DNA of 64,000 nt from an uncultured Gammaproteobacteria bacterium (GTDB taxonomy: Bacteria > Pseudomonadota > Gammaproteobacteria > UBA6186 > Azoamicaceae): assembly GCA_963784575.1 (NCBI GenBank), contig CAWARU010000001.1:2375244-2439243 (forward strand), read 5' to 3'. A model generated the notes under the pieces. That model worked only from the letters and a program-made list of their open reading frames with translations. It ran no database searches and was not told the origin of the DNA. Of this stretch, positions 1-41,919 are shown one piece after another. Every line of letters starts with the position of its first letter. The first letter of the stretch is position 1. The position numbers were made by a program, and so were the translations under genes.

Positions 1-141
1 GCTGTAGATTTAAATGAAACTGATATACAGAAAGTCATTAGTGACACCTATTCTGAAGATAATTCAGTTGAATCGGAGAGAGGTAGGAAGTTTATCAATA
101 ATATTTTTAAGTTTTTGGATAAATGTAACATTTATTTATAG
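1..141 (+). CDS. 3-prime end of an unidentified CDS that continues upstream of the window (partial)
   Basis: Frame 1 is open from base 1 to TAG at 139-141 (...FINNIFKFLDKCNIYL*). No domain recognised. Confidence 0.3.
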   Translation, partial: AVDLNETDIQKVISDTYSEDNSVESERGRKFINNIFKFLDKCNIYL

Positions 142-227: not shown

Positions 228-1997
228 ATGTCTAAACCAAATTATATTCTAGGTACGGGTCTTTCTCATGATGGCTCTACCTGTCTTTTACGTGATGGTA
301 AAATAGTGGTTGCAATTGAAAAAGAAAGATTAACAAGGAAAAAACATGATGGATATAATGATGATCGAACAATACAATACTGCTTAGACACTGCTGGAAT
401 TACTTTTAAAGATATCGATCTGGTGGTGCAAGAAACAACTTATTATAATTTATTAGAACCTGATGAGCCTGAAAAAGTAAAGGGAAGAATTATTCCTAAA
501 GATATTCCGACTGTCACAATTTCACATCATTTGGCCCATGCTTATAGCGCTATTGGTACGGCTCCATTTGATACCATGTCAGTGGTAGTATTAGATGGTG
601 AAGGAAGTAATTTAGATCAATGTATTGATGTTAAAAATTGTAAACATTTACCTGAAGAAATAAAAAATTTAGCTCCCAAAAGCCAAAGAAAATATTGGGA
701 GTTTCTAAGTTATTATGCTTTTCAAGATGGTAAGATACAACCCATATTTAAGGATTTTGCAAAAATCTATGATAAAAAATCAGACAATTTTGTAATTTGG
801 TTGAGTACTCTTGGTGAATTTTATAAAGGTATAAGTACCTATATTTTCGATCAATGGTTTGCAGAGGGTAAAACCATGGGGCTCGCTCCATTTGGGAAAC
901 CAAATATATTTTCATTTGAAGCATTTAATTTTAATGACGGACGAATTGGGTTAAATAAAGATTGGATGGTACATTTTCAAGAAAAAAATAGCGGCGAATT
1001 TTTAGGTTTTTTTGAAAATTTCCAATTTTATGCAAATATGGCTTATTGGGGACAAAAGGAATTAGAAAAAGCTGTCATCGGATGTTTTAACAAAATGTAT
1101 GAATTATTTCCAAATGAAAATGTCGCCTATTCAGGTGGTGTTGCTCTAAACGCAGTAGCAAATTCTAAATTATTTTCAACCACTCAATTTAAGAATTTCC
1201 ATGTTCATCCTTCTCCCGCTGATAACGGGCTTGCTATAGGTTGCTGTTACTATGGCTGGCTAGAATATTTTCAAAAAGAAAAGGTTCAGGACAGAGGCTC
1301 AATTTATCTCGGTAGGACATACGAAAACAATGAAGCCATTGAAATATTGTCCAAAAATTCACATTTGGTGGATTTTTATGAAAGTGATAATTATATAGAG
1401 GAAACTGCCAATTTCCTTGCTGAAGGAAAAATAGTTGGTTGGTTTCAAGGTGGATCGGAATTTGGTCCAAGAGCGCTTGGTCATAGAAGTATCTTAGCAG
1501 ACCCTAGAAAACCTGGCATAAGAAATTTTATAAATAGAAAAATTAAACACAGAGAAGATTTTCGGCCATTTGCTCCTTCTGTGTTAATGGAAGACTTAAA
1601 AACATATTTTGACTGTGATTTTGAAAAGAGTCCCTATATGATTCAAGTGGGTAGAGTAAGACCTGAGTTTGCAGCAGAAATACCTGCAGTAGTTCATACA
1701 GATCTGTCTGCAAGAGTACAATCAGTTGAAGAACATTTGTTTCCTGAATACTATCAATTAATTAGAGCATTTAAAACTAAAACTAAACTTCCCATATTAT
1801 TAAATACTTCTTTCAATGGTGCAAATATGCCGATTGTTGAGACACCTGAAGAAGCCATTAATTTTTTTATAGAAATTCAAAACATTGATGTGTTGGTCAT
1901 AAATAATATCATTATAAAAAATAAAACTCCAAAATATTTAAGATTTATTTGTATGACCAAATATCAAGGCAGTGCAGATGATTATCCATCCGTTTAA
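228..1997 (+). CDS. Carbamoyltransferase, NodU/CmcH family
   Basis: 589-aa ORF. N-terminal ILGTGLSHDGSTCLL..AIEKERLTRKKH and C-terminal GPRALGHRSIL, REDFRPFAPSV and NTSFN motifs are typical of this family. Confidence 0.85.
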   Translation: MSKPNYILGTGLSHDGSTCLLRDGKIVVAIEKERLTRKKHDGYNDDRTIQYCLDTAGITFKDIDLVVQETTYYNLLEPDEPEKVKGRIIPKDIPTVTISHHLAHAYSAIGTAPFDTMSVVVLDGEGSNLDQCIDVKNCKHLPEEIKNLAPKSQRKYWEFLSYYAFQDGKIQPIFKDFAKIYDKKSDNFVIWLSTLGEFYKGISTYIFDQWFAEGKTMGLAPFGKPNIFSFEAFNFNDGRIGLNKDWMVHFQEKNSGEFLGFFENFQFYANMAYWGQKELEKAVIGCFNKMYELFPNENVAYSGGVALNAVANSKLFSTTQFKNFHVHPSPADNGLAIGCCYYGWLEYFQKEKVQDRGSIYLGRTYENNEAIEILSKNSHLVDFYESDNYIEETANFLAEGKIVGWFQGGSEFGPRALGHRSILADPRKPGIRNFINRKIKHREDFRPFAPSVLMEDLKTYFDCDFEKSPYMIQVGRVRPEFAAEIPAVVHTDLSARVQSVEEHLFPEYYQLIRAFKTKTKLPILLNTSFNGANMPIVETPEEAINFFIEIQNIDVLVINNIIIKNKTPKYLRFICMTKYQGSADDYPSV

Positions 1998-3108
1998 AGG
2001 ATCACGCCCTTCTAAAGAACAGCAAAATTCAGTAATAAATTTAAATGAGAGGTTATTTGATCCAACACAATCTATCGACCATTTTTCAGAAGTTTATGAT
2101 TTTCTTGAAAACCAACAAGCTCACTATATTCAAGACAGTGAGCCTTGCTACTACGTGTACCGTTTGGAATCAGACTATGGCTGTCAAACAGGGGTTATTG
2201 CATTAGTAGATTTGAATCATATGACATGCAATATCCACCCTCACGAGGAAGTAAAGCAATGGAAGAGCGATCTTTACATTGAGTTTCTGAATACCAAAAA
2301 AATACAGGCTAATCCTATTATCTTATTGCATAATTTTCTAGAGCCCATTCAATTACTGTTGCAAAGATTAACAGTCTCAGATCCAAATATCGATATTAAA
2401 TCTGTTGCGGGATGTAGTCATAAACTGTGGGTGATTGAAAATACTGATCTAATTAATTTGATTAATGATAATTATAAATTTATCAGTCATTATTATATTG
2501 GGGATGGACATCATCGCTATTATGCTGCAAAAAAAGGTTTTTTAGGGAATACAAAATCCTATTTGCTTTGTTGGCTTATTTCAGATGCAGAAGCATGTGT
2601 TCTACCTTTTCATTGGATCGTACCCATGCTAGGTGCGGTGGACAGAAAAATATTGTTTAGAGAATTGGGCCAGCATTTTGACATATATATTCGATCTATT
2701 GCTGTACAGCCTAAAATGCCAAATCAACTCGGATTATACATTGATGCTACCTGGTATCATCTAGAAATGAAATCCTCTAAGCCTGCATCACATATGAGTG
2801 TTTTTCTGAAAGAGTTTCTTAATCAAAAATTTGGTATTAACAATGTTATTAATACTTATGTTGATGTTCATAAGCTCGCAACAACGGTGAGTAATTCAAT
2901 GCATGATCTTGCTTTTTCTTTCCCAGAAATCAATATTAGCGATCTTCTCTCTTGGATTAATTCTGGACATATATTGCCTGTAAATACTACGTATTTTGTA
3001 CCAAAGCCCGCTATTGGATTAGTTAATTATTGTTTCGATCCCTCGATTACATCTCGAAATGAAACTAGATTAACTTCTAATAAAGAATCACTAACCTCCC
3101 CAAGCTAA
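1978..3108 (+). CDS. DUF1015 family protein (function unknown)
   Basis: Overlaps the previous gene by 20 nt. Starts MIIHPFKG (typical DUF1015 N-terminus) and contains GDGHHRY. Confidence 0.6.
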   Translation: MIIHPFKGSRPSKEQQNSVINLNERLFDPTQSIDHFSEVYDFLENQQAHYIQDSEPCYYVYRLESDYGCQTGVIALVDLNHMTCNIHPHEEVKQWKSDLYIEFLNTKKIQANPIILLHNFLEPIQLLLQRLTVSDPNIDIKSVAGCSHKLWVIENTDLINLINDNYKFISHYYIGDGHHRYYAAKKGFLGNTKSYLLCWLISDAEACVLPFHWIVPMLGAVDRKILFRELGQHFDIYIRSIAVQPKMPNQLGLYIDATWYHLEMKSSKPASHMSVFLKEFLNQKFGINNVINTYVDVHKLATTVSNSMHDLAFSFPEINISDLLSWINSGHILPVNTTYFVPKPAIGLVNYCFDPSITSRNETRLTSNKESLTSPS

Positions 3109-3189
3109 TTAACTGACGCTTATTAAATTGCTATAATTGCTATAGTGGAATATCAGGTTCGATTTGAGTGTTGTTTGTTAAGGAAAGTC

Positions 3190-3414
3190 TTAACTATTCT
3201 TAGCTTCTTCCATTTGCCTTCTTAAACTTAAAGGCCTCATATCTGTCCAAACCTCATCAACGTATGCTGCACATACTTCTTTTGTGCCTTCGATTCCTGT
3301 TTCTTTCCAGCCAAAAGGTATTTCTTTCTTAAAGCTCGGCCAAAAAGAATATTGCTCTTCAATATTAACCAGAACCTTGAAGGTTTGGGTTTCTTCTTTT
3401 TCATTCATAACCAT
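3190..3414 (-). CDS. MbtH-like protein (NRPS adenylation-domain chaperone family)
   Basis: The internal ATG at 3414 gives about 74 aa. [28 protein letters not shown] matches the MbtH signature with its invariant Trp residues. The 36 upstream codons of the tracked ORF are probably untranslated. Confidence 0.85.
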
Positions 3415-3695
3415 TTCGACTCCTAAGTTATTGCTAGTTTGAAAAAATAAGGTAACATTCTTAGATAAGCATTGTTGAGTGAAATCAATATTTGACGACT
3501 GTCCGCCGTGCTTTTCAGCCACTCAATTTGAAGTTAATTATACCCGCTTTTTGGAATTCATGCGATTATTTTATGACTTTTTCATATCGCAAGACTGGGA
3601 GGTAAAGTTAGTTAATATAACATTAATAGAATCTTGAATTCTTGAACATGTACTGTTAAAGTGGTTTATGGCGAATTTGAGGATGATTTTATTCA

Positions 3696-4662
3696 ATGAT
3701 AATTGACAGTATAGCAGATGTAAAGAGCAGTCCTATTTTTTTTAACATGAAAGGATTTGTGCCTTCGGATCTTTTATTAAAACTAGAAGGATTGAATATT
3801 GCAAAGTCAATCAAACTTAAAACAGCTAGGCACATGTTAGAAGCCCATGAGAAAAATGGTAATGTTATAAAAAACAAATCCCGAATTATTTGCTCAAGCT
3901 CAGGTAATTTGGCTATTGCTTTGGCTATACTTTGCAAAGAAAAAAAATATCCTATGATTGCAGTAGTAGATCCAAATACCAACTTACTGTCAAAAAAATT
4001 AATACCTTTATATGGTGGAGAACTTATTGAAGTTACAGAGCGTGATAGCAATGGGGGTTTCCTTCAAACCAGGATAGATTTAATTAATAAAATGCTTAAG
4101 GAAGATAAGTATCTATTTTGGATTAACCAATATGACGATCTGGAAAATTGTCATGCACATTATCACACCACAGCGGGTGAAATATTAAAGGAGGTTCCAG
4201 ACATCACCCATTTGTTTATTGGAGCAGGTACAACCGGGACTCTAATGGGCTGTGCTCAATATTTTAGGCAATACTCACCAAAGACCAAAGTTATAGCCGT
4301 AGATGCTGTGGGATTCTGTAACTTTCTCAAAAGTTCCAGCTAAACGGTATATTCCTGGTTTGGGTACCAGTATCGCACCTTCTATTGCAGATAAAAATGC
4401 TGTGGATGATATTATTTGGGTTCAAGAAAAAGACACGATTCGAACCTGCTATGAGATTTTGGAAAATCTTGGATTATGGATAGGTGGTTCAACTGGCACT
4501 GTATTACATGGTGTTCGTCAATACTCTATGGAATCATCCAAAAACAAAATAGTAGCTATAAGTCCTGATTTTGGAGACGCTTATTTAGATTCTGTCTATA
4601 ATTTTGATTGGATCAGAAGTAAGTACAATTGTGAAATTAAGGATATTTTACATGGAAGCTAA
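3696..4662 (+). pseudogene. sbnA: SbnA-like PLP enzyme (cysteine-synthase fold; first step of L-2,3-diaminopropionate synthesis), split by a 1-nt frameshift
   Basis: ORFs 3696-4343 and 4303-4662 lie in different frames and together give a full-length protein (KLEGLNIAKSIKLKTA lysine motif, SSGNLAIALA, GAGTTGT, IPGLGTS). Removing one T at 4314-4315 restores ..AVDAVGSVTFSKVPAKRYIPGLG.. Confidence 0.7.
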
Positions 4663-5689
4663 TTTACGTATAGTTGCTGCGAAGGTAATATCTGAAATTT
4701 TGAATAATAATACTGAAGCTTTATATAAAATAGTTAAAGATTGTTATTCAATGCATGATGAAGGTGGCAGCCTGACGGCGCCAAGTGCATTTCTCTTATT
4801 CCCTCATAAACCAGAAGCAAGAATTATCGGGCTCTCTGCAGCAATCAAACCCGATCAGAAAAATTTTAGTGAAATTGCAGGTATGAAATGGATTGCAAGC
4901 TATCCTAAAAATATTCAAAATAACTTACCGAGAGCTTCTGCCGTAATTATTTTAAATCATCCTGAAACAGGATTTCCAATAGCATGCCTTGAAGGTTCTT
5001 TAATCAGTGCTGCTCGTACTGCATTGTCTGCAGTCGCCGGAGCGGAATTCTTGTATAATCGTCATAAAGTTTGTTCTGCATTGGGCATTATTGGCAATGG
5101 TTTTATTGCAAAAAATATTTTAAAATATTTAATTTTACTCAATTGGGAAATAGATGAGATATATTTATATGATACTTTTCCTGCCTCGAGTAAGTCGTTT
5201 CAGCAGTATGCACAATCTTTAGGCAATTTTAAGGTAGTTATTCATCATTCTTCTGATAAGGTAATTCAATCATCGGATTTAATTATCTTTGCTACTACGG
5301 AAAGAACACCCAATGTTAAAAACCTAGATTTATTTCGACACAATCCTTGCGTTTTGCATATTTCATTACGTGATCTTGCTAACAATATTATTTTAAATAG
5401 TACAAATGTTGTGGATGATATTGAACATATTTTATCAGCAAAAACATCGGTACATCTTGCTTATGAAGAGAATAATCAAGATAGATCTTTTATTAACGGC
5501 ACTATTGGCCAGATGATATCAGGTACGCGATCTCTTCCGAGCGGTCGTAGCATAATTTATTCACCTATGGGCTTGGGAATATTAGACATCGCAGTGAGTC
5601 AATTTGTCTATCAGCAATCAATACAGTCTAATACATTTACTAATATTGAAAATTTTCTCCCATTAGAAAATTCTGTAATCGCAAGTTAA
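4652..5689 (+). CDS. sbnB: SbnB-like ornithine cyclodeaminase/mu-crystallin family dehydrogenase (second step of L-Dap synthesis)
   Basis: ATG at 4652 (MEANLRIV) overlaps the sbnA-like stop. Contains the Rossmann motif GIIGNGFIAK and sits next to the sbnA-like gene. Confidence 0.75.
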   Translation: MEANLRIVAAKVISEILNNNTEALYKIVKDCYSMHDEGGSLTAPSAFLLFPHKPEARIIGLSAAIKPDQKNFSEIAGMKWIASYPKNIQNNLPRASAVIILNHPETGFPIACLEGSLISAARTALSAVAGAEFLYNRHKVCSALGIIGNGFIAKNILKYLILLNWEIDEIYLYDTFPASSKSFQQYAQSLGNFKVVIHHSSDKVIQSSDLIIFATTERTPNVKNLDLFRHNPCVLHISLRDLANNIILNSTNVVDDIEHILSAKTSVHLAYEENNQDRSFINGTIGQMISGTRSLPSGRSIIYSPMGLGILDIAVSQFVYQQSIQSNTFTNIENFLPLENSVIAS

Positions 5690-5727
5690 GAATTATGATT
5701 ACCAAGCAATTAGGAAACTGCTGATAC

Positions 5728-6954
5728 ATGTATTCATTAAAAAATCCTCCTGCAACTCTCCTTCTAGAAGATGGATCTTTGTTTCATGGTTATTCTTTTG
5801 GAGTTGACGGATCCACATTAGGCGAAGTTGTTTTCAATACTTCAATGACCGGCTATCAAGAAATGTTGAGCGATTGCTCTTATGCTGGGCAAATTTTAAC
5901 TCTCTCTTATCCGCATATCGGAAATACTGGAATTAATTTGGAAGATAATGAATCTCATCGGATCTGGGCTCATGGTTTAATTGTTCGTCAATATTCAGAA
6001 TATTATAGCAATTGGCGCGCAGAAAAATCATTATCTTCGTTTCTAATGGAACAAAATGTTGTTGCCATCAGTCAAATTGATACCCGCTCTTTAATTCACG
6101 TGCTTCGAGAAAAAGGTTCGATGATGGGTTGCATTATTTCTGAAAGACTAGAAAAAAACTCGTTAAACTACCAAAATTCTTTATTACGATTAAAAGAATA
6201 TATCTTGAAAAAAACCATGGAAATGGATTTTACAAAAGAAGTTTCTTTAAAATCTTTTCAAGAATGGACTCTGAAAGAAAGAATGAATTCAAGTCCTACA
6301 CAACAAAATCTTCTTAATTTTAAAACCCCACATATTATTATTTATGATTTTGGTTTTAAGCACAATATTCCAAATTGTCTTCGCGCACTTGGTTGTCAGA
6401 TTACCATTATCCCTGCAAACACATCAGTTTCAGAATTTCTCAGAATTTTACCCGTTCCAAGTGGCATAGTTCTATCCAATGGCCCAGGCAATCCTAATTC
6501 CCTTAAAGATACAATTACGTTGGTTTCAGAGCTCATTGAAACGAATTTACCAATTCTTGGTATTTGCTTAGGACATCAATTATTAGCGCTTGCAAGTGGT
6601 GCAAGGGTTACCAAGATGAAATTTGGACATCACGGTGCGAATCATCCTGTCCTAAATCTAAAAACAGGTCACGTCATGATCACCAGTCAAAATCATGGAT
6701 ACACTGTTCAAGAAGAGTCTTTGCCGCCTGCATTTGAAATGACATATCGATCTTTATTCGATGGGACTTTACAAGGCTTTCAGCATACAGAAAAGCCCAT
6801 TATGGGGTTTCAAGGACATCCAGAAGCTAGTCCCGGACCTGAAGAAAGTATAGAAATATTCAAAGACTTTTTAACTATTGTAATGAACGAAAACAAAAAA
6901 CTTCCATCGGAACAACAGCCATTTAACTTCAAGCAGGTCATTGAAAATGCCTAG
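5728..6954 (+). CDS. carA: Carbamoyl-phosphate synthase small (glutaminase) subunit
   Basis: 408 aa. N-terminal [14 protein letters not shown], catalytic Cys context [10 protein letters not shown], plus HGANHPV and GFQGHPEA. Confidence 0.95.
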
Positions 6955-9832
6955 ACGATCAGATATTAATAGCATACTCATTATTGGCTCAGGTCCCATC
7001 ATTATTGGGCAAGGCTGTGAATTCGATTACTCTGGCGTACAAGCTTGCAGAGCTTTAAAAGAAGAAGGATACAAAATCATTCTGGTCAATTCTAATCCTG
7101 CAACGATAATGACCGATCCCGATTTCAGTGAAGTCACATACATCGAGCCTATCAATTGGAAAGAAATTACCAAGATTATCCTCAAAGAAAAACCTGATGC
7201 ATTGCTCCCCACCATGGGCGGCCAAACAGCTTTAAATTGCACATTGGATCTTTATAAAGAGGGTATCTTAAAAAAATACAACATAAAACTTATTGGCGCT
7301 TCAATCGATGCCATAGAAAAAGCCGAAAATCGAGAGCTTTTTCGAAAAGCCATGCAAACCATAGGTTTAGAGGTGCCTCGTTCTTCTGTCGCCACGTCCC
7401 TAGAAGAAGCGAAAGAAATTCAAACCACACTTGGATTTCCTACCATTATTCGTCCTTCTTATACCTTAGGAGGACATGGTGGCGGCATAGCGCACAATCA
7501 GCAAGAGTTTCTAGACATTTGCGAAAGAGGATTTGCATATTCTCCCATTCATACTTTATTAATTGAAGAGTCGTTATTGGGGTGGAAGGAATTCGAGCTT
7601 GAAGTTGTGCGTGACAAAAATGATAATTGTATTATAGTCTGCACCATAGAAAACATTGATCCCATGGGCATTCATACGGGTGATTCCATTACCTGTGCCC
7701 CCGCACAAACCTTAACCGATTTAGAATATCAGAAAATGCGAACTGCAGCGATTACCATACTACGAGAGGTGGGTGTTGAAACAGGCGGTGCAAACGTACA
7801 ATTTGCTGTAGACCCTAAAAACGGCAGAATGCTTGTTATCGAAATGAATCCTCGTGTTTCTCGTTCCTCCGCACTTGCCTCAAAAGCCACTGGATTTCCC
7901 ATTGCAAAAATAGCTGCCAAGCTCGCAATTGGTTATACTCTAGATGAATTAAAAAATGATATTACAAAAGGCTCGATTCCAGCTTCTTTTGAACCCACCT
8001 TAGACTATGTAGTCATAAAAATTCCCCGATTTAACTTTGATAAATTCATCGGTGCCAATCCGATTTTAACCACACAAATGAAGTCTGTTGGGGAAGTGAT
8101 GGCACTAGGGAGAACATTTCAGGAATCTCTTCAGAAAGCTTTGTGTAGTTTAGAAGCAGGTTTTGAAGGTGTTTACCCACCATTAAATTATATCACATCT
8201 AATTTATCGATTAATGAATTGAAACGGAAATTATTGGTATCTACTTTTGATCGTTTTTTTTACATATCTCTCGCATTTCAGAAAAATATGACTTTAACGG
8301 AAATAAATGAGTTGACAGGTATTGACTCCTGGTTTTTAAATCAAATCCAGGATTTAGTCATTACCGAACACAGTATTCGATCACATAATCTTGCTAACGT
8401 TGATCCCGAACATTTATTTCTATGGAAACAACAAGGGTTTAGTGACAAACGACTTGCAACCTTATTTGACACCTCTGAGGCCGAAATTCGCGCAATTAGA
8501 CATCGAAATAGTATACGGCCTGTTTATAAAAGAGTTGATAGCTGTGCTGCTGAGTTTCCAGCAAAAACGGCTTATCTTTACTCAACATATGAGACAACCT
8601 GCGAATCAAGGCCTAACCAAAACCCTAAAATTATTGTGCTTGGCAGTGGTCCGAATCGTATAGGACAAGGCATAGAATTTGATTACTGCTGCGTCCATGC
8701 TATCATGGCCATCCGTGAAGCGGGGTTTGAAACCATTATGATCAATTGTAATCCAGAAACAGTGTCCACAGATTATGATATCTCAGACCGCTTATATTTT
8801 GAACCTTTAACACTTGAAGCTGTCCTTGAAATTATTGATCTTGAAAAACCCTCTGGAATTTTCGTTCATTTTGGAGGACAAACGCCTCTTAAACTAGTTA
8901 AAAGCTTGGCTGAGTCAGGAGTAGCTTTATTAGGAACAAGCTGGCAGTCTATCCAGATTGCAGAGGATAGAAAATTATTTTTAAACCTTTTAAATCACCT
9001 TAAATTAATTCAACCTCAGAATGGAACGGCTGTCACACTTAAAGAAGGAATGGATGTTGCTAAAAAAATTGGTTATCCACTAATATTAAGACCTTCTTTT
9101 GTTCTGGGTGGACAGGCCATGAAGGTTGTTCACAATGATTCTGAATTAGAGAAATATTTTGAAAGAGCCATTCAAGTTTCCGATGGTAATCCCATATTAC
9201 TCGATAAATTTTTAGAAAATGCTATAGAAGTTGATGTTGACGCTATTTCAGATGGAAATCAAACCTTTATTGCTGGCATTTTAGAGCACCTAGAACCAGC
9301 AGGCATCCACTCTGGAGATTCAACTTGCTCTTTACCTCCTTTTAGTTTATCTCAAGATATTCAAGCAGAATTGTCAAAACAAGTAAGAATTTTAGCAGGA
9401 GCACTCCAAATTGTAGGTCCTCTAAATGTACAGTTTGCACTTAAAGACAATATTATTTATGTACTAGAAGTTAATCCCAGAGTCTCTAGAACCATGCCTT
9501 TCGTAGCAAAATCCATTGGGTTACCCATTGCAAAAATAGCAGCTCTTTCAATGCTCGGAAAATCCCTAAAAGAACAAGGTATAGAGAGAACTTATCAACA
9601 TAGCTATTTTTGTGTTAAATCGCCTGTTTTTTCATTTGATAAATTTCCTGAAGCCAATCATGAGCTAGGTCCTGAAATGAAATCAACTGGAGAAGTTATG
9701 GGCATTGACATGACTTTTGAAAAGGCCTTATTTAAAAGCAAAAGGGCTTCGTCTTCTATTTCTTCAGAAATTGATTCAGATTCCAAAGTATATTCGCTAC
9801 AAGAATTGCATAATAAGATTAATGGCACGTAA
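6947..9832 (+). CDS. carB: Carbamoyl-phosphate synthase large subunit lacking the C-terminal MGS-like allosteric domain
   Basis: ATG at 6947 overlaps the carA stop. Shows duplicated ATP-grasp halves ([17 protein letters not shown] and [17 protein letters not shown]). It is only about 961 aa and ends about 45 aa after MKSTGEVMG. Confidence 0.9.
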
Positions 9833-13188: not shown

Positions 13189-14007
13189 TCAGCCAGCGAA
13201 GCAATTGGTAAGTCTATGGGAATGATTCCAGGCATCGAGATTGCCCATTATGATATATATCGAATCAACCGGATCTGAGACGGTAATTTGGGGTATGCAG
13301 TAATCCTTTATTTTTTTCTTTACTAAATCCATATCAACTTTTGCTCCTTGTTGTTTCAACCAATGAAAATCCCATAGATCTCTATATCTAATCCGAGGTT
13401 GACAATTAACAAACGCGATTAATTTATCAGCTAATATTTCATTTAAAGATTCAACTAAAACAATAGTGTCTTTGTAGCCATCTGGGAGAAAATCGTAATT
13501 ATGAATAAGCTGCTTTGCTTCTCGGGTGTATGCAGGAATATTTGCCACCTCGATTTTAATCATTTGTTTTGGTATATCTTTTTGACCAGGATGGGTTACT
13601 AAGCGAAGTTGCCAAATATCAACATTAATGTTTCTATTTGTTTCTTCTTTTAATAATTCTTTAGGCTCTTTGACGGTGATCTCTAATCCATATCGTTTCC
13701 CAATATAATCTTCGAGGCACGATTTTATTGTAACTAAGTTTTTAGATTCAAAATCTATGCCTCCAGCAAAATCTAAATCTTCACTAAATCTTGGAGCCCC
13801 GTAACATAAACGGAGTGAAGTACCGCCTTGAAAAGTTAAATTATCTAGTAAACCGGCGGTGTCGAGTGCAAATAATATATCATAATGTAGCAATTCCTTC
13901 TCTATAACAGGTCTCATATGAGGACGTCCTTGCACACGCATAGCTTTATCCACTATAAATTGAAAATCATTTTTTTCAGTGCTAATTAATTTCCCCAATA
14001 TTAACAA
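13189..14007 (-). CDS. AbiEii/AbiGii-family nucleotidyltransferase toxin (type IV TA, DUF1814)
   Basis: 272 aa. LHYDILFALDTAGLLDNLTFQGGTSLRLCYGAPRFSEDLDF is the characteristic NTase core. Confidence 0.8.
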   Translation of the reverse strand: MLILGKLISTEKNDFQFIVDKAMRVQGRPHMRPVIEKELLHYDILFALDTAGLLDNLTFQGGTSLRLCYGAPRFSEDLDFAGGIDFESKNLVTIKSCLEDYIGKRYGLEITVKEPKELLKEETNRNINVDIWQLRLVTHPGQKDIPKQMIKIEVANIPAYTREAKQLIHNYDFLPDGYKDTIVLVESLNEILADKLIAFVNCQPRIRYRDLWDFHWLKQQGAKVDMDLVKKKIKDYCIPQITVSDPVDSIYIIMGNLDAWNHSHRLTNCFAG

Positions 14008-20892: not shown

Positions 20893-21747
20893 TTAATATT
20901 TATCAGCCATTGAGTTACCCATTGAGTCATTTGTTACTTTTTTCCAAACGATAATCATACCATCTGCAGAACCGCTTGCAAAATGTTGTTCATCAAGTGC
21001 GAGTAAGCAAATCACTTCTCGGCTATGGCCTTGAAGCGTTTGTATACAATTAGAACCTTGCCAAATTCGAATTGTTGTATCATAACTTGCACTGACCAAT
21101 TTCCCATCGGCTAATACAATCAGGGCTCTTACTGCACCGGTGTGGCCTGTTAATATTTGTGGAACACTTTTATTCCAAACTCGAATAGTCCGGTCATGTG
21201 AACCACTTATTAAGATTCCCTCGGGGCTTTCTGTTAAAGCATATATTGGTTCTGTATGCCCGTAAAGTGTAGCAACATTTCGATAACCATCCCATAATTT
21301 GATAGTGGCGTCTCTAGATGTGCTCGCTAATAATTTCCTAGATAAAAATATTAAGTTTTGTATGGGTGCGTCGTGGGCTTGCATGCTATGAATAAGACCA
21401 TTTTGATTCCAAAACTTAATTGTCCTATCGTGTGAGCCACTGATAATCAATCCATCGTTCACGGTTAATGCAGAAATATAATCAGAGTGACCAATTAAGG
21501 TTTTTTCACATTTGCCAGCAGCCCATATCTTGATTGTGTTGTCTTCAGAGCCGCTGACAATACAATTGCCAAGAGACTTCACTGAAAAAACACCTTTTTT
21601 GTGTCCCTTAAGTGTTAAAACACGATTTCCTTGATACCAAAATTTAATTGTTTTATCAGCCGAGCTGCTGATTAAATAATTAGAATTATAACATAAGCTA
21701 AAGACACCCATTAAGTGTCCTAAATATTTCTTGTATATTTCAAACAC
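20893..21747 (-). CDS. Seven-bladed WD40 repeat protein (stand-alone beta-propeller)
   Basis: Seven units of GH-x-V...D-x-TI(K/R)-x-W (DKTIKFW, DNTIKIW, DRTIKFW, DATIKLW, DRTIRVW, DTTIRIW, DGMIIVW). Confidence 0.85.
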   Translation of the reverse strand: MFEIYKKYLGHLMGVFSLCYNSNYLISSSADKTIKFWYQGNRVLTLKGHKKGVFSVKSLGNCIVSGSEDNTIKIWAAGKCEKTLIGHSDYISALTVNDGLIISGSHDRTIKFWNQNGLIHSMQAHDAPIQNLIFLSRKLLASTSRDATIKLWDGYRNVATLYGHTEPIYALTESPEGILISGSHDRTIRVWNKSVPQILTGHTGAVRALIVLADGKLVSASYDTTIRIWQGSNCIQTLQGHSREVICLLALDEQHFASGSADGMIIVWKKVTNDSMGNSMADKY

Positions 21748-23615: not shown

Positions 23616-23790
23616 TAACTGTTCAGGCACAGGAGATTCGCTTTGGAAAAACGTCCAGATTTGAGGCAAGGTTGCTTTAAAAATTCAACAAAACAGCGGA
23701 GTTTACACATAGTAAATGAGCAATTTTTGTTGAATTTTTAATGCGAGATTGCCCAAAGATGGGCGTTCCAGGGCAGTGCGGGAACGATTG
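23616..23790. repeat. About 175-bp palindromic (MITE/REP-like) element, full-length copy
   Basis: The imperfect outer arms 23616-23676 and 23745-23790 are reverse-complementary. A perfect 17-bp inner stem pairs 23677-93 with 23725-41. Arm sequences recur at 54562-54607, 44001-44012 and 57924-57937. Confidence 0.6.
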
Positions 23791-23815
23791 CAGGAAATCT
23801 ACTGAAGGACGCTTT

Positions 23816-25195
23816 ATGTCAGAAACTACTATCAGCTTTAATCACAAGGAAGTTGCCTTTAGGAACCTTTACAACACTGGTATGTTGATGTATAAGGGTG
23901 ATTTATATGAAGTTGAAAAGCTGGGTTTAGATCTTATATCTAAAATAAAAAATAAAAATACGACTATTGCCGAACTCGGACATTATATAAGTCAAAAATA
24001 CAATATTAGCATTGAAAACTCGATAGAAGATGTATCCGTTTTCATAAATGCGCTTTTTGAGACCGGTCTCATATTAATCGATGGTAAAAAAGTAATTATA
24101 AAATCGAACGGTCAGATCACAGATGAAAAAAATAGAATGAAAAGAAACGATGAGTTTGGATACTCAAAGTGTTGGGCGCTTGCGAAAAGAAATCAGGTAC
24201 CACTTAAATGTAAATTTAATACCACTTATCGTTGTAATATTGCTTGCAAATATTGCTATAACGGAGAAAGACCTGGTATTCCAGGCGGCGATAATTATGC
24301 TAAAAAAACAGAATTATCATTAACAGAAATAGATAATCTGTTCCAAGAAATGTATGGTTTAGGGACATTTTTCTTTGATTTTGCGGGAGGCGAGCCTTTT
24401 GCAAGACAGGATTTTGATGAAATTTTATCTTTGACAGATAAGTATGAATTTGCGGTTGAAATTTCAACCAATGGCACTTATGTGAAAGAGGATGTTGCTA
24501 AAAGGTTATCAGAACACCGAATTCAACTCGTTGTTGTATCTATGTTTAGCCCAAATTCTAGCATTCACGACGCTTTTACTCAAGTAGATGGTACATTCAA
24601 ACGTGCCTGTAATGGAATAGAGTTATTGCTAAAACATGGAATTGAAGTGGGCGTTAGATGTTCCATAAATAAATCAAATTTCGCACAATGGAAAGAGTTA
24701 AGAAATTTAGTATTGGGCTGGGGGGCCAGGTATTTTCCACATACTCAGGTACATTTATCAAGTGATCGCAAAGTAGATACGCGTCATTTACGCTTAGACA
24801 ACGATCAACTCAAAGAAATCTTTGATGAAGGAATAACATTAAATGAGAATCAAAGATGTGAAGTCGGTTTTGCGCGGGTTGATATTATGCCAAACGGTGA
24901 TGTTGCTCTCTGCTCGTTACTTACCCATCCCCTAGGAAATATTCGAGAACAATCGTTTGAAACAATATGGAAAGAATCTAAAAATTTAAATACTGTCAGA
25001 ACACTCTTAGGAGGAGAAGTAAATAGTTGTTCTGGTTGTAAGTCTTTCGGTGAAGATGTCTACAGGTGTACCGCTGATGCGTTGTTTGATGATGGTGCAT
25101 TTAACGTTCCTTCTTCAGAAGCCATTCGAGTAATTCGAGCATATGAAAACACAGCAAAACAGTCCTCTCATGGAGAACTTAGCAAACAAGCTTGA
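23816..25195 (+). CDS. Radical SAM peptide maturase with N-terminal PqqD-like RRE and C-terminal SPASM/twitch-type Cys motifs
   Basis: ATG at 23816 (MSETTISF). About 90-aa PqqD-like domain, CX3CX2C (CNIACKYC), GGEP, CX12GX4C (CEVGFARVDIMPNGDVALC) and CSGC-x9-C. Confidence 0.85.
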   Translation: MSETTISFNHKEVAFRNLYNTGMLMYKGDLYEVEKLGLDLISKIKNKNTTIAELGHYISQKYNISIENSIEDVSVFINALFETGLILIDGKKVIIKSNGQITDEKNRMKRNDEFGYSKCWALAKRNQVPLKCKFNTTYRCNIACKYCYNGERPGIPGGDNYAKKTELSLTEIDNLFQEMYGLGTFFFDFAGGEPFARQDFDEILSLTDKYEFAVEISTNGTYVKEDVAKRLSEHRIQLVVVSMFSPNSSIHDAFTQVDGTFKRACNGIELLLKHGIEVGVRCSINKSNFAQWKELRNLVLGWGARYFPHTQVHLSSDRKVDTRHLRLDNDQLKEIFDEGITLNENQRCEVGFARVDIMPNGDVALCSLLTHPLGNIREQSFETIWKESKNLNTVRTLLGGEVNSCSGCKSFGEDVYRCTADALFDDGAFNVPSSEAIRVIRAYENTAKQSSHGELSKQA

Positions 25196-26321
25196 GGACT
25201 CCTGGTTTTTTGAGGAAGTAAGATTGTATCAAAAATCCGATGATGATAGGCTAACAGAATTGTATATAAAGTGTGGAATGTTAGCAGAGGATGGCAAAGA
25301 CGCTCCTATATTTCTAAGAAGCCATCATTTGGCTGATCTTGTCTTGGTAGTAGATAGAGGGTTTGGTGCTGAGGCAGTTATTTGTTTTATAAAGAGATCT
25401 TCCTCCGTCCTCTGGGCATACAATCTGGTTTATGATAAAGCCATTAAAAAACAAAGCAAAACAACAAATCTTTGGAAAACTGCCTTTAGGATTGCTAAAG
25501 AACAAAAGGTAGATTGGCTGACTGCTCAGCCTATGGCAAGGAAATCTGAAGCCCTTCAAAGATATTTTCATTATTATGGTTGGTTTTCATATGCAGACGA
25601 TGAAATAATAAATCCTTTGCCATTATGCTATAAGATTTGGCAAAAATTTGACCTTAACCCAATGCTTCCGAACCGAATGTCCTTTACTAAGGAAAGTTTT
25701 ATCATAGAAAATGTAAATTCAAGAATTATTATTAATAAAAAAGACAATAATTTATCAAGTTTTTTAGGGAAACAGGAAATTATATATAACGAAAATGTTG
25801 CAGATATTAATGTGTTATTTTCTAATGTCGATGCACAACCCCAACACCTACAAAATTTGCGATTTTTTCAATCCAATGGCGCCATTTCTCTTTTAAAATC
25901 TGGTTTTAGTTTGTTACAACCTTGGTGGACTTCTATCAGTACCGAAGAATTAGTACTTCCAGCAAGAGATTTTTGGCCTTGGGATGAAATTTTGAATCAG
26001 AATCATCAAATAGAATTTATCCAACATGATGGTGAATTAAAAAATAGACTTAACATTTTACAACTGAGTAAAATAGAATTTCAATTTCAATTCAGAGGAA
26101 ATCCGTCCTCTTCATATACCAGATTGTTGTTTGAGAGTTATAATAAGCCGATCGTAAGAGAAGGCGAAATCGAGATAGGGGACAGCATCCTAAATTTTGG
26201 TGAATTAGCATATAATGTCATCTATTTGAAATGTAATAGTGTTTGGCGGACATTTGTCTTTGTTTGTAAAGGTACTTTTAATCTTGATGTAAGTGTAAGG
26301 AAACAGTATGAGCTGCATTAA
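25170..26321 (+). CDS. Hypothetical protein, possible N-terminal GNAT-like fold, unknown C-terminal domain
   Basis: Overlaps the upstream stop (25195) and the downstream start (26308), so it is translationally coupled within the operon. Similarity to GNAT (..ALQRYFHYYGWF) is weak. Confidence 0.55.
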   Translation: MENLANKLEDSWFFEEVRLYQKSDDDRLTELYIKCGMLAEDGKDAPIFLRSHHLADLVLVVDRGFGAEAVICFIKRSSSVLWAYNLVYDKAIKKQSKTTNLWKTAFRIAKEQKVDWLTAQPMARKSEALQRYFHYYGWFSYADDEIINPLPLCYKIWQKFDLNPMLPNRMSFTKESFIIENVNSRIIINKKDNNLSSFLGKQEIIYNENVADINVLFSNVDAQPQHLQNLRFFQSNGAISLLKSGFSLLQPWWTSISTEELVLPARDFWPWDEILNQNHQIEFIQHDGELKNRLNILQLSKIEFQFQFRGNPSSSYTRLLFESYNKPIVREGEIEIGDSILNFGELAYNVIYLKCNSVWRTFVFVCKGTFNLDVSVRKQYELH

Positions 26322-27621
26322 TAATCATGTTCTTGCAATGCAAAAGCTTGGAGAGGTCTGGTTTGTAAAGCATATTCCAAGTAGAAGATTTTTTGAATTT
26401 TCGAATACTTTAGGGATACTTTGGGAGTGCTTACTGTCAACGCAAAGTATCAATGACGCCAAAGAAAAATTTGAAAGAAAATTTCCTTCTGTAAAAGAAG
26501 TTGGGGATGATTTTGTTGATGCGATAAAGCAACTAGAAAAATACGGGTTACTTAACAATAATAATTTACGTGACAATAAAATAGTTGGTTCAAACTCGGC
26601 TTCACACACTTTGAATGATATAGGAAGCATACAAAAGAAAATGGCTTCTATAAGTAGAAAAACCAACAGACCACTTTTGGCAGAGTATGAAATGACTTAT
26701 CGATGTAATTTACGCTGCGTCTATTGCTATCAACCCAATTATTTAAAACATGCGAAAATAAATGAGTTAACAAAAGAAGAAATTACTGTAATGTTGCAAG
26801 ATTTTTCAAAGTCTGGTTTATTTTTCTTTAATGTCACTGGAGGTGAATGTACGTTAATGCCGAATTTTCCTCATGTTATTGAAGAAGCCAGAAAACTCCA
26901 TTTGGATTTAACAGTACTTACTAATGCAACAGCCATAAAACCTCATATATTAGATTTATTTAGCGAATATGAAATTTCAGAGATCAAAGTAAGCATCTAT
27001 GGTTCCTCAGCAGAGACTTATAAAAAGTTTACTGGGTTTGAATCTGGTTTTAACAAAGTAGTAAATAATCTAAAAAAAATGAAGGAAGCAAATTTAAATG
27101 TGACAGGCAAAATCATTGTAACTTCTTACCAGGAAAAAGAGTATAAAGAGACTGTACGATTGCTGCAGGATCTTGATATAAACATTGAAGTTAATAGTCA
27201 TATAATGCCAGCTATGGATGGTGATTTATATCCTCTGGAGTTTCGTCCGCAATCTTCTACGCTCAAAGAACTTATGGAAACAGGATATATTGACATTGAG
27301 GGGGGCTGTAGGGCTTGCACAGCGGGCACTCTAAAATTTCGTATAACGCCTGATGGTTCTGTCAATGCATGTGAATTAACACGTGAAACGCTTGGCAATA
27401 TTCGCCAAGGCAATATTTTGGATATTTTAAATTCTTCTAAGTCCAAATCAGTCAAAAATGAGGTTTGGCAAGCGATCAAAAGTCAGGATAAAGAAAAAGT
27501 CTGGGCATTGCCTTGTCCTGCTATTGGAAAGATGGAGGAAGGAAGTTGGGTCGAGCCCTCTAAAGAGGCCATGAGATGGACTAATATTGCGATTGAACTT
27601 AAGGAACATGGTATTGCTTAA
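26308..27621 (+). CDS. Second radical SAM peptide maturase with N-terminal PqqD-like RRE and a twitch-like auxiliary-cluster motif
   Basis: CX3CX2C (CNLRCVYC), GGEC, CX12GX4C (CTAGTLKFRITPDGSVNAC). The N-terminal ~100 aa resemble PqqD (..DDFVDAIKQLEKYGLL). Confidence 0.85.
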   Translation: MSCINNHVLAMQKLGEVWFVKHIPSRRFFEFSNTLGILWECLLSTQSINDAKEKFERKFPSVKEVGDDFVDAIKQLEKYGLLNNNNLRDNKIVGSNSASHTLNDIGSIQKKMASISRKTNRPLLAEYEMTYRCNLRCVYCYQPNYLKHAKINELTKEEITVMLQDFSKSGLFFFNVTGGECTLMPNFPHVIEEARKLHLDLTVLTNATAIKPHILDLFSEYEISEIKVSIYGSSAETYKKFTGFESGFNKVVNNLKKMKEANLNVTGKIIVTSYQEKEYKETVRLLQDLDINIEVNSHIMPAMDGDLYPLEFRPQSSTLKELMETGYIDIEGGCRACTAGTLKFRITPDGSVNACELTRETLGNIRQGNILDILNSSKSKSVKNEVWQAIKSQDKEKVWALPCPAIGKMEEGSWVEPSKEAMRWTNIAIELKEHGIA

Positions 27622-27636
27622 TATAACAAAAAAAAT

Positions 27637-28818
27637 ATGCCGTTAAAAAACTTGGAATTATTAGTCTTCAAGCTAATTGCTCTGATAGATTCTTTAAGTT
27701 TTGCAATCATTCTTCCATGCCTACCTTATTTTGCGATGAAATTTGGTGCGACTCCCTTAGAAATCACTGGTTTGACAGCCATTTATTACCTGGGTTTTTT
27801 CATATCTGTTCCTATTATTGGCTATTTGATAGATAAACAATTTATCGAAAAAAAATTATTACTTTTTACAATAAATGGCATCATATTTTCTTACGTAGTC
27901 CTACTTGTATCCAAAAATGTATTCTTAATATATGTTGCGCGATTTATTATGGGTTTAATGTCAGGAAATTTATGTATTTTGCAAGTTGCTATTACCAATT
28001 TATCGAAAAAAGAAGAGCTGACTGAAAATTTTGCTGCCCTTTCTGTATTTGGAAATATAGGTGATATTTTAGGAATGGGAATGTGTATCAGTCTGCCATT
28101 TATTTTTCAAGAGGATTTGGTTTATCAAAATATTTTTCTTTTTTCTATAATAATTAACTTCCTGATTTCTTTCGCACTTATTAAGTGCGTTCGTAGATCA
28201 ATACCAAAAAAAAACCAGGTCCAAAAGGTGCAGGATTTTTCATGGAAGAATATTAATTTAAATATATTATCTTATTTATTTTTTAACTTTTCATTAATGA
28301 GTATTTCTTCCGTACTTCCACTATTAGTTTATGAAAAATTTGGCTTTACCACCCAAGCCCTTGCGGCATTATTTTTATTGTATATAATGGTTGGTACTCT
28401 GGCTCAAAAGCTGGTGCTTAGAGGATCTATTGAAAATAATAAGTTGGCTATAGTTTTATCCTGCTATTCATTATGTTTTATCTCTTGCATGCTCTTTGAA
28501 AAGGCAAATAGTCCTATTGTATTCATAATACTCTGTATTATCTTTTCTGTAGGCGTATATTTACTTTCGCCATTAATTCTTTTCAATATAGCAAGTTCAT
28601 CACTTAACTCTGGTAGAACGGGTGTAATAATGGGAATTTCGGACTGCACAAAAGCTTTGGCAACAATTGTCGCATCTATTTCTTCTGGGTTTTTGTACCA
28701 AAATTATTCTGAAAACATAGTTTTTTATACCAGCGGTGCCTTATTGCTTCTCAGTTTTTTCTTCTACATAAGTTATTCGAAACCCTATTTTTTGTTCAGG
28801 AAAATATATGACAAATGA
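27637..28818 (+). CDS. MFS transporter (probable exporter)
   Basis: 393 aa, about 12 hydrophobic helices, in the same operon. Confidence 0.8.
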   Translation: MPLKNLELLVFKLIALIDSLSFAIILPCLPYFAMKFGATPLEITGLTAIYYLGFFISVPIIGYLIDKQFIEKKLLLFTINGIIFSYVVLLVSKNVFLIYVARFIMGLMSGNLCILQVAITNLSKKEELTENFAALSVFGNIGDILGMGMCISLPFIFQEDLVYQNIFLFSIIINFLISFALIKCVRRSIPKKNQVQKVQDFSWKNINLNILSYLFFNFSLMSISSVLPLLVYEKFGFTTQALAALFLLYIMVGTLAQKLVLRGSIENNKLAIVLSCYSLCFISCMLFEKANSPIVFIILCIIFSVGVYLLSPLILFNIASSSLNSGRTGVIMGISDCTKALATIVASISSGFLYQNYSENIVFYTSGALLLLSFFFYISYSKPYFLFRKIYDK

Positions 28819-31269: not shown

Positions 31270-31277
31270 ATATTTCT

Positions 31278-34462: not shown

Positions 34463-34485
34463 GCCAAGCTCTCTAAACTACAACC

Positions 34486-36491: not shown

Positions 36492-36545
36492 ATCTACTCC
36501 CCCATCTCACCTTCAGGTTCTGGTTCTAATATATGTAGGATTTTC

Positions 36546-37322: not shown

Positions 37323-37469
37323 AAAGTCAACCTAAGTCAATTTAAGCCCAATGGCTAAGATGTAACAGACGCTAGTCGACAGTATACACTTCGTTTAGTC
37401 CATCAATCCACTATTTAATTTATTAAAAACTTATCCTTTAATTCCATTTTTTCATCGAATAGGTTAATG

Positions 37470-37499
37470 TAAGGAGTTTTCAATTAAGGAGTTTTCAAT
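37470..37499. repeat. Tandem 15-bp direct repeat (taaggagttttcaat x2) in a divergent promoter region
   Basis: Read directly. A second pair of atcaggttttt motifs lies at 37586-96 and 37606-16, spaced 20 bp apart. Confidence 0.8.
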
Positions 37500-37629
37500 T
37501 TTTGAACTTTTGAATTTATGTAGGCATTAAAGATAAAAAAATACCGGAAGATTGTGATGGTATGTTAGCTGTCAAATTAGATTCAATCAGGTTTTTGAAA
37601 CTTCTATCAGGTTTTTAAAAATAGATATT

Positions 37630-38232: not shown

Positions 38233-38281
38233 GCAAAGGCCATATATAAACTAAATTTTACCAAAGATAAAAAGGTGTCAT

Positions 38282-39814: not shown

Positions 39815-39878
39815 TTGTTCGAATATCTTTTATCTTGAGGGTTCATTTATTCTTCGCATTGATTCAGGGATCGAAATG

Positions 39879-41789: not shown

Positions 41790-41919
41790 GTGTAAGATTA
41801 CAAAATACTCTGTTTATAAGTCAACAGATTGTGTATCATGGCAAATTCGACCTTCCTTCAAGAAGGATGTTGTAAAACTAACAAATATTGGAAAGGCAAT
41901 ATAAAGGTAATAGAGGAAT

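Follow-up and report, generated by a model that had tools for sequence, protein, structure and literature searches.

What do the seven neighbouring genes at positions 228–9832 of the DNA considered here produce together, and do they serve a single pathway at all? The stretch that we analysed, 64,000 nucleotides of contig CAWARU010000001.1 (assembly GCA_963784575.1) from an uncultured gammaproteobacterium and hereafter called the window, carries close to its start genes for a carbamoyltransferase, a DUF1015 protein, an MbtH-like protein, the SbnA-like and SbnB-like enzymes of L-2,3-diaminopropionate (L-Dap) formation, and both subunits of a carbamoyl-phosphate synthetase (CPS), CarA and CarB. 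We read this block as a cassette of two operons that would supply precursors for one carbamoylated secondary metabolite containing Dap, to be assembled by enzymes encoded outside the block, and we put the probability of this reading at roughly 55%. It builds on gene identities and folds obtained from tool results and on the reactions of SbnA, SbnB and CarAB, which are established chemistry; the kinase, transferase and MbtH steps and the shared product are inferred. The product would be a carbamoylated Dap-containing metabolite of a low-GC, uncultured bacterium.

In the proposed pathway, the DUF1015 protein would phosphorylate free L-serine to O-phospho-L-serine, which the pyridoxal 5'-phosphate (PLP)-dependent SbnA would convert together with L-glutamate into N-(1-amino-1-carboxyl-2-ethyl)-glutamic acid (ACEGA), and the NAD+-dependent SbnB would cleave ACEGA oxidatively to L-Dap and 2-oxoglutarate. 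CarAB would form carbamoyl phosphate from glutamine, bicarbonate and two ATP, and as its CarB subunit is devoid of the binding domain for UMP, IMP and ornithine, this output may be unthrottled by the pyrimidine and arginine status of the cell. The carbamoyltransferase would activate carbamoyl phosphate with ATP to carbamoyl-AMP, the known mechanism of its family, and presumably pass the carbamoyl group on to an acceptor. The MbtH-like protein would serve to activate an adenylation domain whose gene lies elsewhere.

All seven genes named by an earlier, sequence-only reading of this DNA were recovered at 228–9832 with Pfam and TIGRFAM/NF models. Their identities held; sbnA does not form the single open reading frame (ORF) that had been assumed, since it is frameshifted, and the placement of the MbtH-like gene on the minus strand and the missing allosteric domain of CarB had been overlooked. 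The block consists of two same-strand units, carbamoyltransferase–DUF1015 and sbnA–sbnB–carA–carB, with the antisense MbtH-like gene between them. The two supply routes are therein interleaved, the carbamoyltransferase gene being co-oriented with the putative kinase gene and sbnAB with carAB. Two junctions overlap, with the ATG of sbnB lying over the stop codon of sbnA and the ATG of carB over the stop codon of carA, and a gap of 38 bp leads from sbnB to carA. Six of the seven genes are intact and keep their catalytic motifs. About 1 kb of non-coding DNA follows on the 3' side of carB. In the window, which has a GC content of about 35%, Rfam and tRNA scans found no RNA genes, a scan for promoter and terminator sites gave a count not above that of shuffled sequence, and a repeat search revealed no element boundaries, its sole repeat being the internal duplication of CarB. 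Positions 1–141 (plus strand) hold the C-terminal end of an upstream plus-strand gene, which is cut by the window start and terminates in FINNIFKFLDKCNIYL and a stop codon.

The Dap branch is represented by the genes for SbnB and SbnA. The SbnB-like NAD-dependent dehydrogenase (4652–5689, plus strand; 345 aa) scores 344 on the equivalog model TIGR03944, above the cutoff of 326.9, matches PF02423 at 7e-30 and adjoins sbnA; its exact 345-aa product was also called in the Logan assembly. The gene for the SbnA-like PLP enzyme (3696–4662, plus strand) is split by a +1 frameshift, one extra T in GGA-T-TCT at about 4314/4315, into ORFs of 215 aa (3696–4343) and 119 aa (4303–4662), both of which match PALP. 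Removal of the extra base yields a 321-aa product that aligns end to end with SbnA of S. aureus (5d87; 3e-54) and has CmnB as its second-best PDB family match (1.3e-41). This repaired protein scores 346.3 on TIGR03945, just below the cutoff of 349.95, with the next family, cysKM, at 178.9. In the alignment with 5d87, the PLP-binding lysine (SIK), the arginine at R132 (QTRI) and the tyrosine at Y152 (NQY) are conserved, and the position of S185 is occupied by glycine; we take R132, Y152 and S185 to be substrate-binding residues of SbnA.

Comparison with short-read contigs bears on the nature of the frameshift. Two Logan contigs (run ERR11571144) are 100% identical to the window over 1721–4311 (L094) and 4317–8839 (L013), which leaves between them five bases, 4312–4316 (GATTC), the exact frameshift site. 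By a rough estimate based on about three breaks over about 9 kb, the chance that an unrelated contig break falls within a few bases of the frameshift is well below 1%. Because the short-read contigs break exactly there, the site is more likely heterogeneous, as in a mixed population, or mis-assembled than cleanly mutated. The sbnA fragments are recorded only from the 3.83-Mb assembly; the DUF1015, SbnB and CarA products were also called in the Logan assembly.

SbnA requires O-phosphoserine, and the candidate for its supply is the DUF1015 protein (1978–3108, plus strand, with the ATG at 1978 in an ORF that opens at 1972; 376 aa). It matches PF06245 at 9.4e-36 with 123.8 bits against a gathering cutoff of 25.8 and keeps all ten residues that are invariant among 130 family sequences (H91, E92, D178-G-H-H-R182, P336, T340 and K345). 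An AlphaFold2 model built from the 130-sequence alignment reached a pLDDT of 91.3 and a pTM of 0.88; a first model from 7 sequences (pLDDT 49) was discarded as useless. Foldseek searches of the PDB with the former model returned only nine matches at E ≤ 1e-3, namely SbnI (6nr6, 5ujd, 5uje), the free serine kinase SerK of Thermococcus (5x0b/e/g/j/k) and 1vk1, a SerK homologue of P. furiosus, which share a ParB/Srx-like fold. These nine had E values of 3.7e-8 to 4.5e-7 and a probability of 1.00, and the next match followed at E 2e-3 with a probability of 0.21. SerK is an ADP-dependent free serine kinase (PMC5120207), and in the staphyloferrin B pathway the O-phospho-L-serine used by SbnA is formed by the serine kinase SbnI (Verstraete et al. 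2018, as cited in PMC12704722).

Within its family, the window protein occupies a distinct place. A word-indexed search of 5.8 billion proteins found six relatives, and a profile search run exhaustively over 1.84 billion cluster representatives retrieved 8738 DUF1015 proteins at E ≤ 1e-3. Only four representatives of 50%-identity clusters score 488–550 bits in this search and all others reach at most 288, a gap which assigns it to a small, divergent subclade. Proteins of this subclade measure 356–395 aa, compared with about 410 aa in the general family, to which the window protein is 21–27% identical. The gene neighbourhoods follow the same division: an SbnA–SbnB–DUF1015 triad is present in all three of the relatives' subclade loci with enough flanking sequence (L006/L007, L008 and the P0248 contig), and on the P0248 contig the three genes overlap one another and follow a gene for a nonribosomal peptide synthetase (NRPS) protein with adenylation and methyltransferase domains. 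As a control we used 80 metagenome loci (856 kb) from a profile search with the subclade alignment, which yielded only members of the general family (21–27% identity); SbnA and SbnB adjoined DUF1015 in one of the 80. The metagenomic locus L006/L007 is a compact cluster that carries the triad and no carbamoylation genes, along with genes for an Orn/DAP decarboxylase, a carrier protein, an acyl-CoA dehydrogenase, a KAS III enzyme, an AMP-binding enzyme, an FAD oxidase, an ABC exporter and an ATP-grasp ligase, and looks like a cluster for a different Dap-containing product.

DUF1015 proteins encoded beside serA/serC have been proposed independently as serine kinases in a 2026 preprint on GapMind, in which SbnI was the top Foldseek match (bioRxiv 10.1101/2024.10.14.618325). 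In a setting with SbnA and SbnB, the kinase reaction is the only direction that would be biochemically useful. Taking together the fold, the synteny with SbnA and SbnB and the genetics of the preprint, we consider the window protein to be probably a free L-serine kinase that would supply the O-phosphoserine of SbnA in the place of SbnI. The earlier proposal of an L-Dap supply module is thereby supported, as SbnB passes its equivalog model, SbnA is borderline and DUF1015 fits as the serine kinase. This Dap-pathway setting also makes the question of kinase or phosphatase, which concerns a family of thousands of members, directly testable.

The second route of the block is the formation of carbamoyl phosphate. 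The glutaminase subunit is encoded by carA (5728–6954, plus strand; 408 aa), whose product scores 443 on TIGR01368 against a cutoff of 307 and contains the GICLGHQ and HPE triad motifs. With 408 aa, this CarA exceeds the usual length by about 25 aa due to an insertion in the linker between its N-terminal and glutaminase domains, and the CarA partner of P0126 in locus L004 is similarly long (407 aa). The synthetase subunit encoded by carB (6947–9832, plus strand; 961–963 aa) scores 1520 on NF003671 and 1398 on TIGR01369, both above cutoff, and both ATP-grasp halves and the oligomerisation domain are present. The protein matches model positions 1–929 of 1058 and has no PF02142 match, which means that it is devoid of the MGS-like allosteric domain through which UMP, IMP and ornithine regulate the CPS of E. 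coli (PMC6022934). A displaced remnant of that domain was not found anywhere in the window. An extreme C-terminal '...LQ.LH...' motif is kept in the window CarB and in its short relatives, which argues that the allosteric domain of about 105 aa was excised in frame and not truncated.

The loss is shared by a group of CarB proteins. The nearest relatives of the window CarB (63–67% identity) measure 960–1014 aa and are also without PF02142; next come ordinary gamma- and betaproteobacterial CarBs of about 1075 aa, with 62–65% identity in the catalytic core. A tree of the catalytic cores, made by neighbour-joining only, sets 13 CarBs without a Pfam-recognisable allosteric domain (the window CarB, P0126–P0133, P0146, P0210 and the CarBs of L001 and L011) apart from 109 canonical ones. 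The contexts of all four relatives that could be read are glycan or metabolite clusters. L004 combines a glycosyltransferase, UDP-glucose dehydrogenase, epimerases and an asparagine-synthase-like gene, with no TobZ-type carbamoyltransferase, and in L005, which encodes glycosyltransferases, a TobZ-type carbamoyltransferase adjoins carAB. L001 and L011 share an oxidoreductase, a DegT aminotransferase, a GT2 glycosyltransferase and a radical-SAM enzyme, along with two (L001) or three (L011) carbamoyltransferases. With the window included, four of five CarB contexts thus contain TobZ-type carbamoyltransferases, and a private CarAB together with such a transferase is therefore a recurring module. 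The APH(6)-like kinase genes that L001 has in addition hint that its product resembles an aminoglycoside and is accompanied by self-resistance.

Could carAB nevertheless be the only, housekeeping CPS of the organism, with an incidental position in this block? Its catalytic core is 62–65% identical to that of ordinary gamma- and betaproteobacterial CarB, and, as a weak argument, no second CarB from the same 3.83-Mb contig appears among the best 120 matches listed. Against this explanation stand the missing regulatory domain, the glycan or metabolite clusters in every examined context of this CarB group and the start of carA 38 bp after sbnB in one operon, and we consider it very unlikely. The absence of the allosteric domain, the grouping with other such CarBs and their contexts next to carbamoyltransferases in glycan or metabolite clusters instead support the dedicated CarAB that the sequence-only reading had suggested. 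Judged from the domain loss, the window CarAB would presumably be feedback-insensitive. In the literature searched, we found no description of a CarB group without the allosteric domain or of dedicated CarAB in gene clusters; such a group may free the carbamoyl-phosphate supply of secondary metabolism or glycan decoration from control by pyrimidines and arginine.

The enzyme that would spend this carbamoyl phosphate is encoded at 228–1997 (plus strand; 589 aa) and is a CmcH/NodU/TobZ-type carbamoyltransferase. Both of its Pfam domains score above cutoff, Carbam_trans_N (PF02543) at 2.3e-32 (113 bits) and Carbam_trans_C (PF16861) at 3.7e-65 (219 bits), corresponding to an N-terminal Kae1-like and a C-terminal YrdC-like domain. 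The enzyme does not belong to the NodU equivalog (138 against 1000). It contains the motifs LSHDGS, SHHLAHAY, LDGEG and PADNGLAIG, which we take to resemble the metal-site motifs of the Kae1-like domain of TobZ. Its relatives in the PDB are 7xb6, GdmN, TobZ and NovN (E 1e-55 to 1e-61), of which the top match 7xb6 is named only 'carbamoyltransferase', and the function-named TobZ, GdmN and NovN act on hydroxyl groups. The closest full-length relatives (60–61% identity) stand beside CarAB in the aminosugar-type clusters of L001 and L011, and a scan of genome contigs added only a relative from Acidobacteriota at 49% identity.

The identity of the carbamoyl acceptor is the point at which our analysis departs most clearly from the sequence-only reading, which had compared the transferase to VioL of the tuberactinomycin clusters and had proposed a ureido-amino acid of the albizziine type. 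The carbamoylation of L-Dap in viomycin, capreomycin and zwittermicin biosynthesis is carried out by transcarbamylases of the ornithine transcarbamylase (OTCase) fold that attack carbamoyl phosphate directly, whereas CmcH/NodU enzymes work via carbamoyl-AMP and their known members are treated as O-carbamoyltransferases (PMC6022934). No OTCace Pfam match was obtained among the ORFs of at least 120 aa in the window, to which 3190–3522 and 4303–4662 were added, and the OTCase motifs SxRTR and HPxQ occur in the window only within stop-interrupted frames. The analogy to VioL hence does not hold: VioL-type enzymes are OTCase-fold (PMC6022934), the window enzyme is of the CmcH/NodU/TobZ class and the window has no OTCase gene. 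This corrects a mis-annotation that is easily made, as a NodU-type transferase beside Dap genes is not the equivalent of VioL.

An albizziine product does not fall with that analogy. According to this explanation, the carbamoyltransferase would N-carbamoylate the beta-amine of L-Dap, either free or carrier-bound, to beta-ureidoalanine (albizziine), which an MbtH-dependent NRPS would incorporate. It is consistent with the composition of the block, in which a single transferase is combined with just one route to Dap and one to carbamoyl phosphate, their genes being interleaved in two operons, with the absence of genes for a hydroxylated scaffold from 228–9832, and with the co-occurrence of carbamoyltransferase, DUF1015 and MbtH genes in L009, the closest relative of the block. 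The opposing evidence comes from the enzymes themselves, given that the known carbamoylases of Dap and of 2,4-diaminobutyrate (Dab) are OTCase-fold and CmcH/NodU enzymes are classed as O-carbamoyltransferases (PMC6022934), that the function-named structural relatives TobZ, GdmN and NovN use hydroxyl acceptors, and that the closest relatives at 60–61% identity are found with sugar aminotransferase, oxidoreductase and glycosyltransferase genes instead of Dap genes. We therefore regard ureido-Dap as a weak reading, possible but less likely than not, and not the product that the family of this enzyme predicts.

By family analogy, the acceptor would be predicted to be a hydroxyl group, with the beta-amine of Dap as the alternative. 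The related Kae1/YrdC machinery of tRNA t6A formation performs N-carbamoyl chemistry, so that the fold would not be limited to oxygen acceptors. The fully specified version, in which the TobZ-type transferase N-carbamoylates L-Dap to albizziine and is fed by a feedback-blind CarAB and by a DUF1015 kinase that replaces SbnI, appears to us rather improbable. It would be, to our knowledge, the first case of amino-acid N-carbamoylation by the TobZ-type class and, if true, the first natural context that shows DUF1015 proteins as kinases rather than phosphatases.

Whether the two routes serve one product was approached through the relatives of the block. Its closest relative is locus L009, with 81% nucleotide identity and protein identities of 85% for the carbamoyltransferase, 63% for DUF1015 and 81% for the MbtH-like protein. 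The gene order of the block recurs there in part, as carbamoyltransferase, DUF1015 and MbtH-like gene are kept in the same order and orientation, while sbnA is not found next to the MbtH-like gene.

The same comparisons can be taken to mean that two unrelated modules merely adjoin. The carbamoyltransferase and CarAB would then O-carbamoylate a sugar or cyclitol, the acceptor being a cell-surface glycan or an inositol/aminosugar product encoded at 30–61 kb, and DUF1015, SbnA and SbnB would supply Dap for a peptide or siderophore. In agreement with this, carbamoyltransferase and CarAB genes occur without Dap genes in L001, L005 and L011, the SbnA–SbnB–DUF1015 triad occurs without carbamoyltransferase or CarAB genes in L006/L007, L008 and the P0248 contig, and the window encodes a myo-inositol-1-phosphate synthase, an inositol monophosphatase, a DegT aminotransferase, glycosyltransferases and a PIG-L deacetylase. 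However, the modules are interleaved and not juxtaposed, with tight or overlapping junctions, and the sugar genes lie 20–50 kb off, behind a toxin gene, WD40 and orphan genes, and insertion sequence (IS) elements. The other genes of the L011 and L001 clusters are, moreover, without orthologues in the window: when orthologues of genes from the L011, L001, L006 and L008 clusters were sought there, only weak family-level matches (DegT 36%, MatE 25%) came up beyond the carbamoyltransferase and CarAB. On this balance, two independent modules seem unlikely to us, and we retain the single cassette as the preferred reading.

A further component that would link the block to peptide assembly is the MbtH-like protein (3190–3414 on the minus strand from an internal ATG, the mechanical ORF extending to 3522; 74 aa). 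It matches PF03621 at 5.1e-17 (61.5 bits), carries the SxWP, GW and WTDMRP motifs and aligns along its length with PA2412 of P. aeruginosa (E 6e-22), and is thus canonical. The only NRPS pieces in the window are a 200-aa fragment at 37630–38232, which comprises the C-terminal part of an adenylation domain and a carrier domain, and a free condensation domain at 38282–39814. The previous statement that the window has no complete adenylation domain and the MbtH-like protein no partner there was confirmed by tblastn and Pfam.

These pieces belong to a second biosynthetic block at 30055–44003. Its plus strand encodes the adenylation/carrier fragment, the free condensation domain, a FemAB-like Acetyltransf_6 protein and a methyltransferase, and its minus strand a 2-oxoacid dehydrogenase E2 component, a fused E1 alpha/beta component, an ELFV-dehydrogenase-like gene, an NAD epimerase, a GT4 glycosyltransferase, a PIG-L deacetylase and a MATE exporter; without an adenylation core, its NRPS is either truncated or an unusual split system. 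At 54605–61263 (minus strand) are found an FkbM-type methyltransferase, myo-inositol-1-phosphate synthase, a GT1 glycosyltransferase, a DegT aminotransferase and an inositol monophosphatase, and this set, together with the GT4 and PIG-L genes at 35–37 kb, is reminiscent of the route by which mycothiol or aminocyclitol (GlcN-inositol) synthesis begins. The stretch 23741–30022 (plus strand) looks like a peptide-modification cluster similar to those for ribosomally synthesised and post-translationally modified peptides, with two radical-SAM/SPASM enzymes around a 392-aa ORF without Pfam match, followed by an MFS transporter and a DUF818 (Chlamydia CHLPS-like) hydrolase.

Scattered between these blocks, all on the minus strand, are genes for an AbiEii toxin (13189–14007), an IS3-family transposase (45394–46215), a Mu/Tn7-like transposase with an AAA_22 ATPase (48940–51094) and a 284-aa WD40-repeat protein (20893–21747). 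The IS3 transposase is less than 60% identical to anything in the plasmid collection, its best matches being from Megaera, Methylomonas and Piscirickettsia, and the IS region had no megablast match among plasmids. Along with many orphan ORFs and non-coding gaps of about 1 kb, these genes suggest that the region is a mosaic island and its low-GC carrier a host-associated bacterium. The affinities of CarB and of the MbtH-like protein point to a low-GC member of the Pseudomonadota.

In such surroundings the cassette might be what is left of a horizontally acquired gene cluster that has lost its function and is decaying. This would account for the sbnA frameshift, for an NRPS reduced to a partial adenylation/carrier fragment and a condensation domain, for the approximately 1 kb of non-coding DNA after carB, and for the IS3 and Mu-like transposases and the AbiEii toxin gene nearby. 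Against decay speak the six of seven genes that are intact with their catalytic motifs, the domain loss of CarB, a clean architecture common to the whole protein group and not a truncation, and the contigs of ERR11571144, which end precisely at the frameshift site, as an assembly error or a mixed population would explain better than a fixed lesion. We consequently judge a dead remnant to be unlikely and continue to favour a precursor-supply cassette.

Several observations weigh against this reading. With regard to the Dap branch, sbnA is frameshifted as assembled, which would break the branch at the SbnA step, and the kinase role of DUF1015 is a prediction. The likeness of DUF1015 to SbnI and SerK exists at the level of the fold only, at 11–15% identity and TM scores of 0.55–0.65 normalised to target length; phmmer and a PDB sequence profile search detected no sequence homology to either and returned chance matches only. 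The preprint that proposed a kinase role leaves kinase versus phosphatase undecided for DUF1015 (bioRxiv 10.1101/2024.10.14.618325). With regard to a common product, either module is found elsewhere without the other. Nor is the arrangement of the seven genes conserved, as the MbtH-like gene in L009 is followed by an unrelated membrane protein instead of sbnA, and L009 has about 137 extra intergenic bases between the carbamoyltransferase and DUF1015 genes, from which it follows that the overlap of these two genes in the window is derived. An adenylation domain core is absent from the 64-kb window, as judged by tblastn with two AMP-binding queries and by Pfam searches of ORFs of at least 120 aa, and the NRPS pieces that are present lie about 28 kb from the block. 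Finally, given these NRPS remnants and the scattered IS elements and toxin gene, the locus may be decaying.

Comparison with known systems places the individual parts of the block on familiar ground. The tuberactinomycin genes (VioB/VioK/VioL/VioN) and the Dap carbamoylation step of zwittermicin share with it the SbnA/SbnB-type route to Dap, an MbtH-like protein and a carbamoylation that uses carbamoyl phosphate. They differ in that the carbamoyltransferase of the window is CmcH/NodU/TobZ-type and not OTCase-fold (PMC6022934), that no NRPS is encoded in the block, and that the block has a private CarAB. TobZ, GdmN and NovN have the same two-domain architecture as the window transferase, to which they are clearly homologous, and presumably the same carbamoyl-AMP mechanism; unlike in these systems, the transferase gene has no scaffold genes for an aminoglycoside, ansamycin or aminocoumarin beside it and is instead accompanied by its own CPS. 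Canonical CarAB of the E. coli type agrees with the window proteins in both ATP-grasp halves, the oligomerisation domain and the intact glutaminase of CarA, with a core 62–65% identical to proteobacterial CarB, yet the window CarB is without the MGS-like domain of about 105 aa, keeps the C-terminal motif and groups with 12 others.

SerBK, the DUF1015 protein encoded next to serA/serC (bioRxiv 10.1101/2024.10.14.618325), is of the same Pfam family as the putative kinase of the window, and the ten invariant residues are conserved. The window protein, in contrast, is 21–27% identical to the general family, falls into a separate small subclade and is linked to SbnA/SbnB instead of serA/serC. The nearest counterpart of the Dap branch as a whole is the SbnA/SbnB/SbnI module of staphyloferrin B synthesis in S. 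aureus, with which it would share the logic of a serine kinase, SbnA and SbnB acting in turn to give L-Dap: the window SbnB passes the equivalog model, SbnA aligns over its full length with the SbnA structure and the DUF1015 model matches SbnI. Differences from that module are the 376-aa DUF1015 protein in the role of the kinase, without detectable sequence similarity to SbnI, the absence of genes for NRPS-independent siderophore (NIS) synthetases, the frameshift in sbnA and the junction with CarAB, a carbamoyltransferase and an MbtH-like protein. A cassette of SbnA/SbnB with a carbamoyltransferase and CarAB was not found described in the literature searched; in its composition, it resembles the staphyloferrin B precursor module SbnA/SbnB/SbnI to which a TobZ-type carbamoylation module, equipped with a CPS of its own, has been joined.

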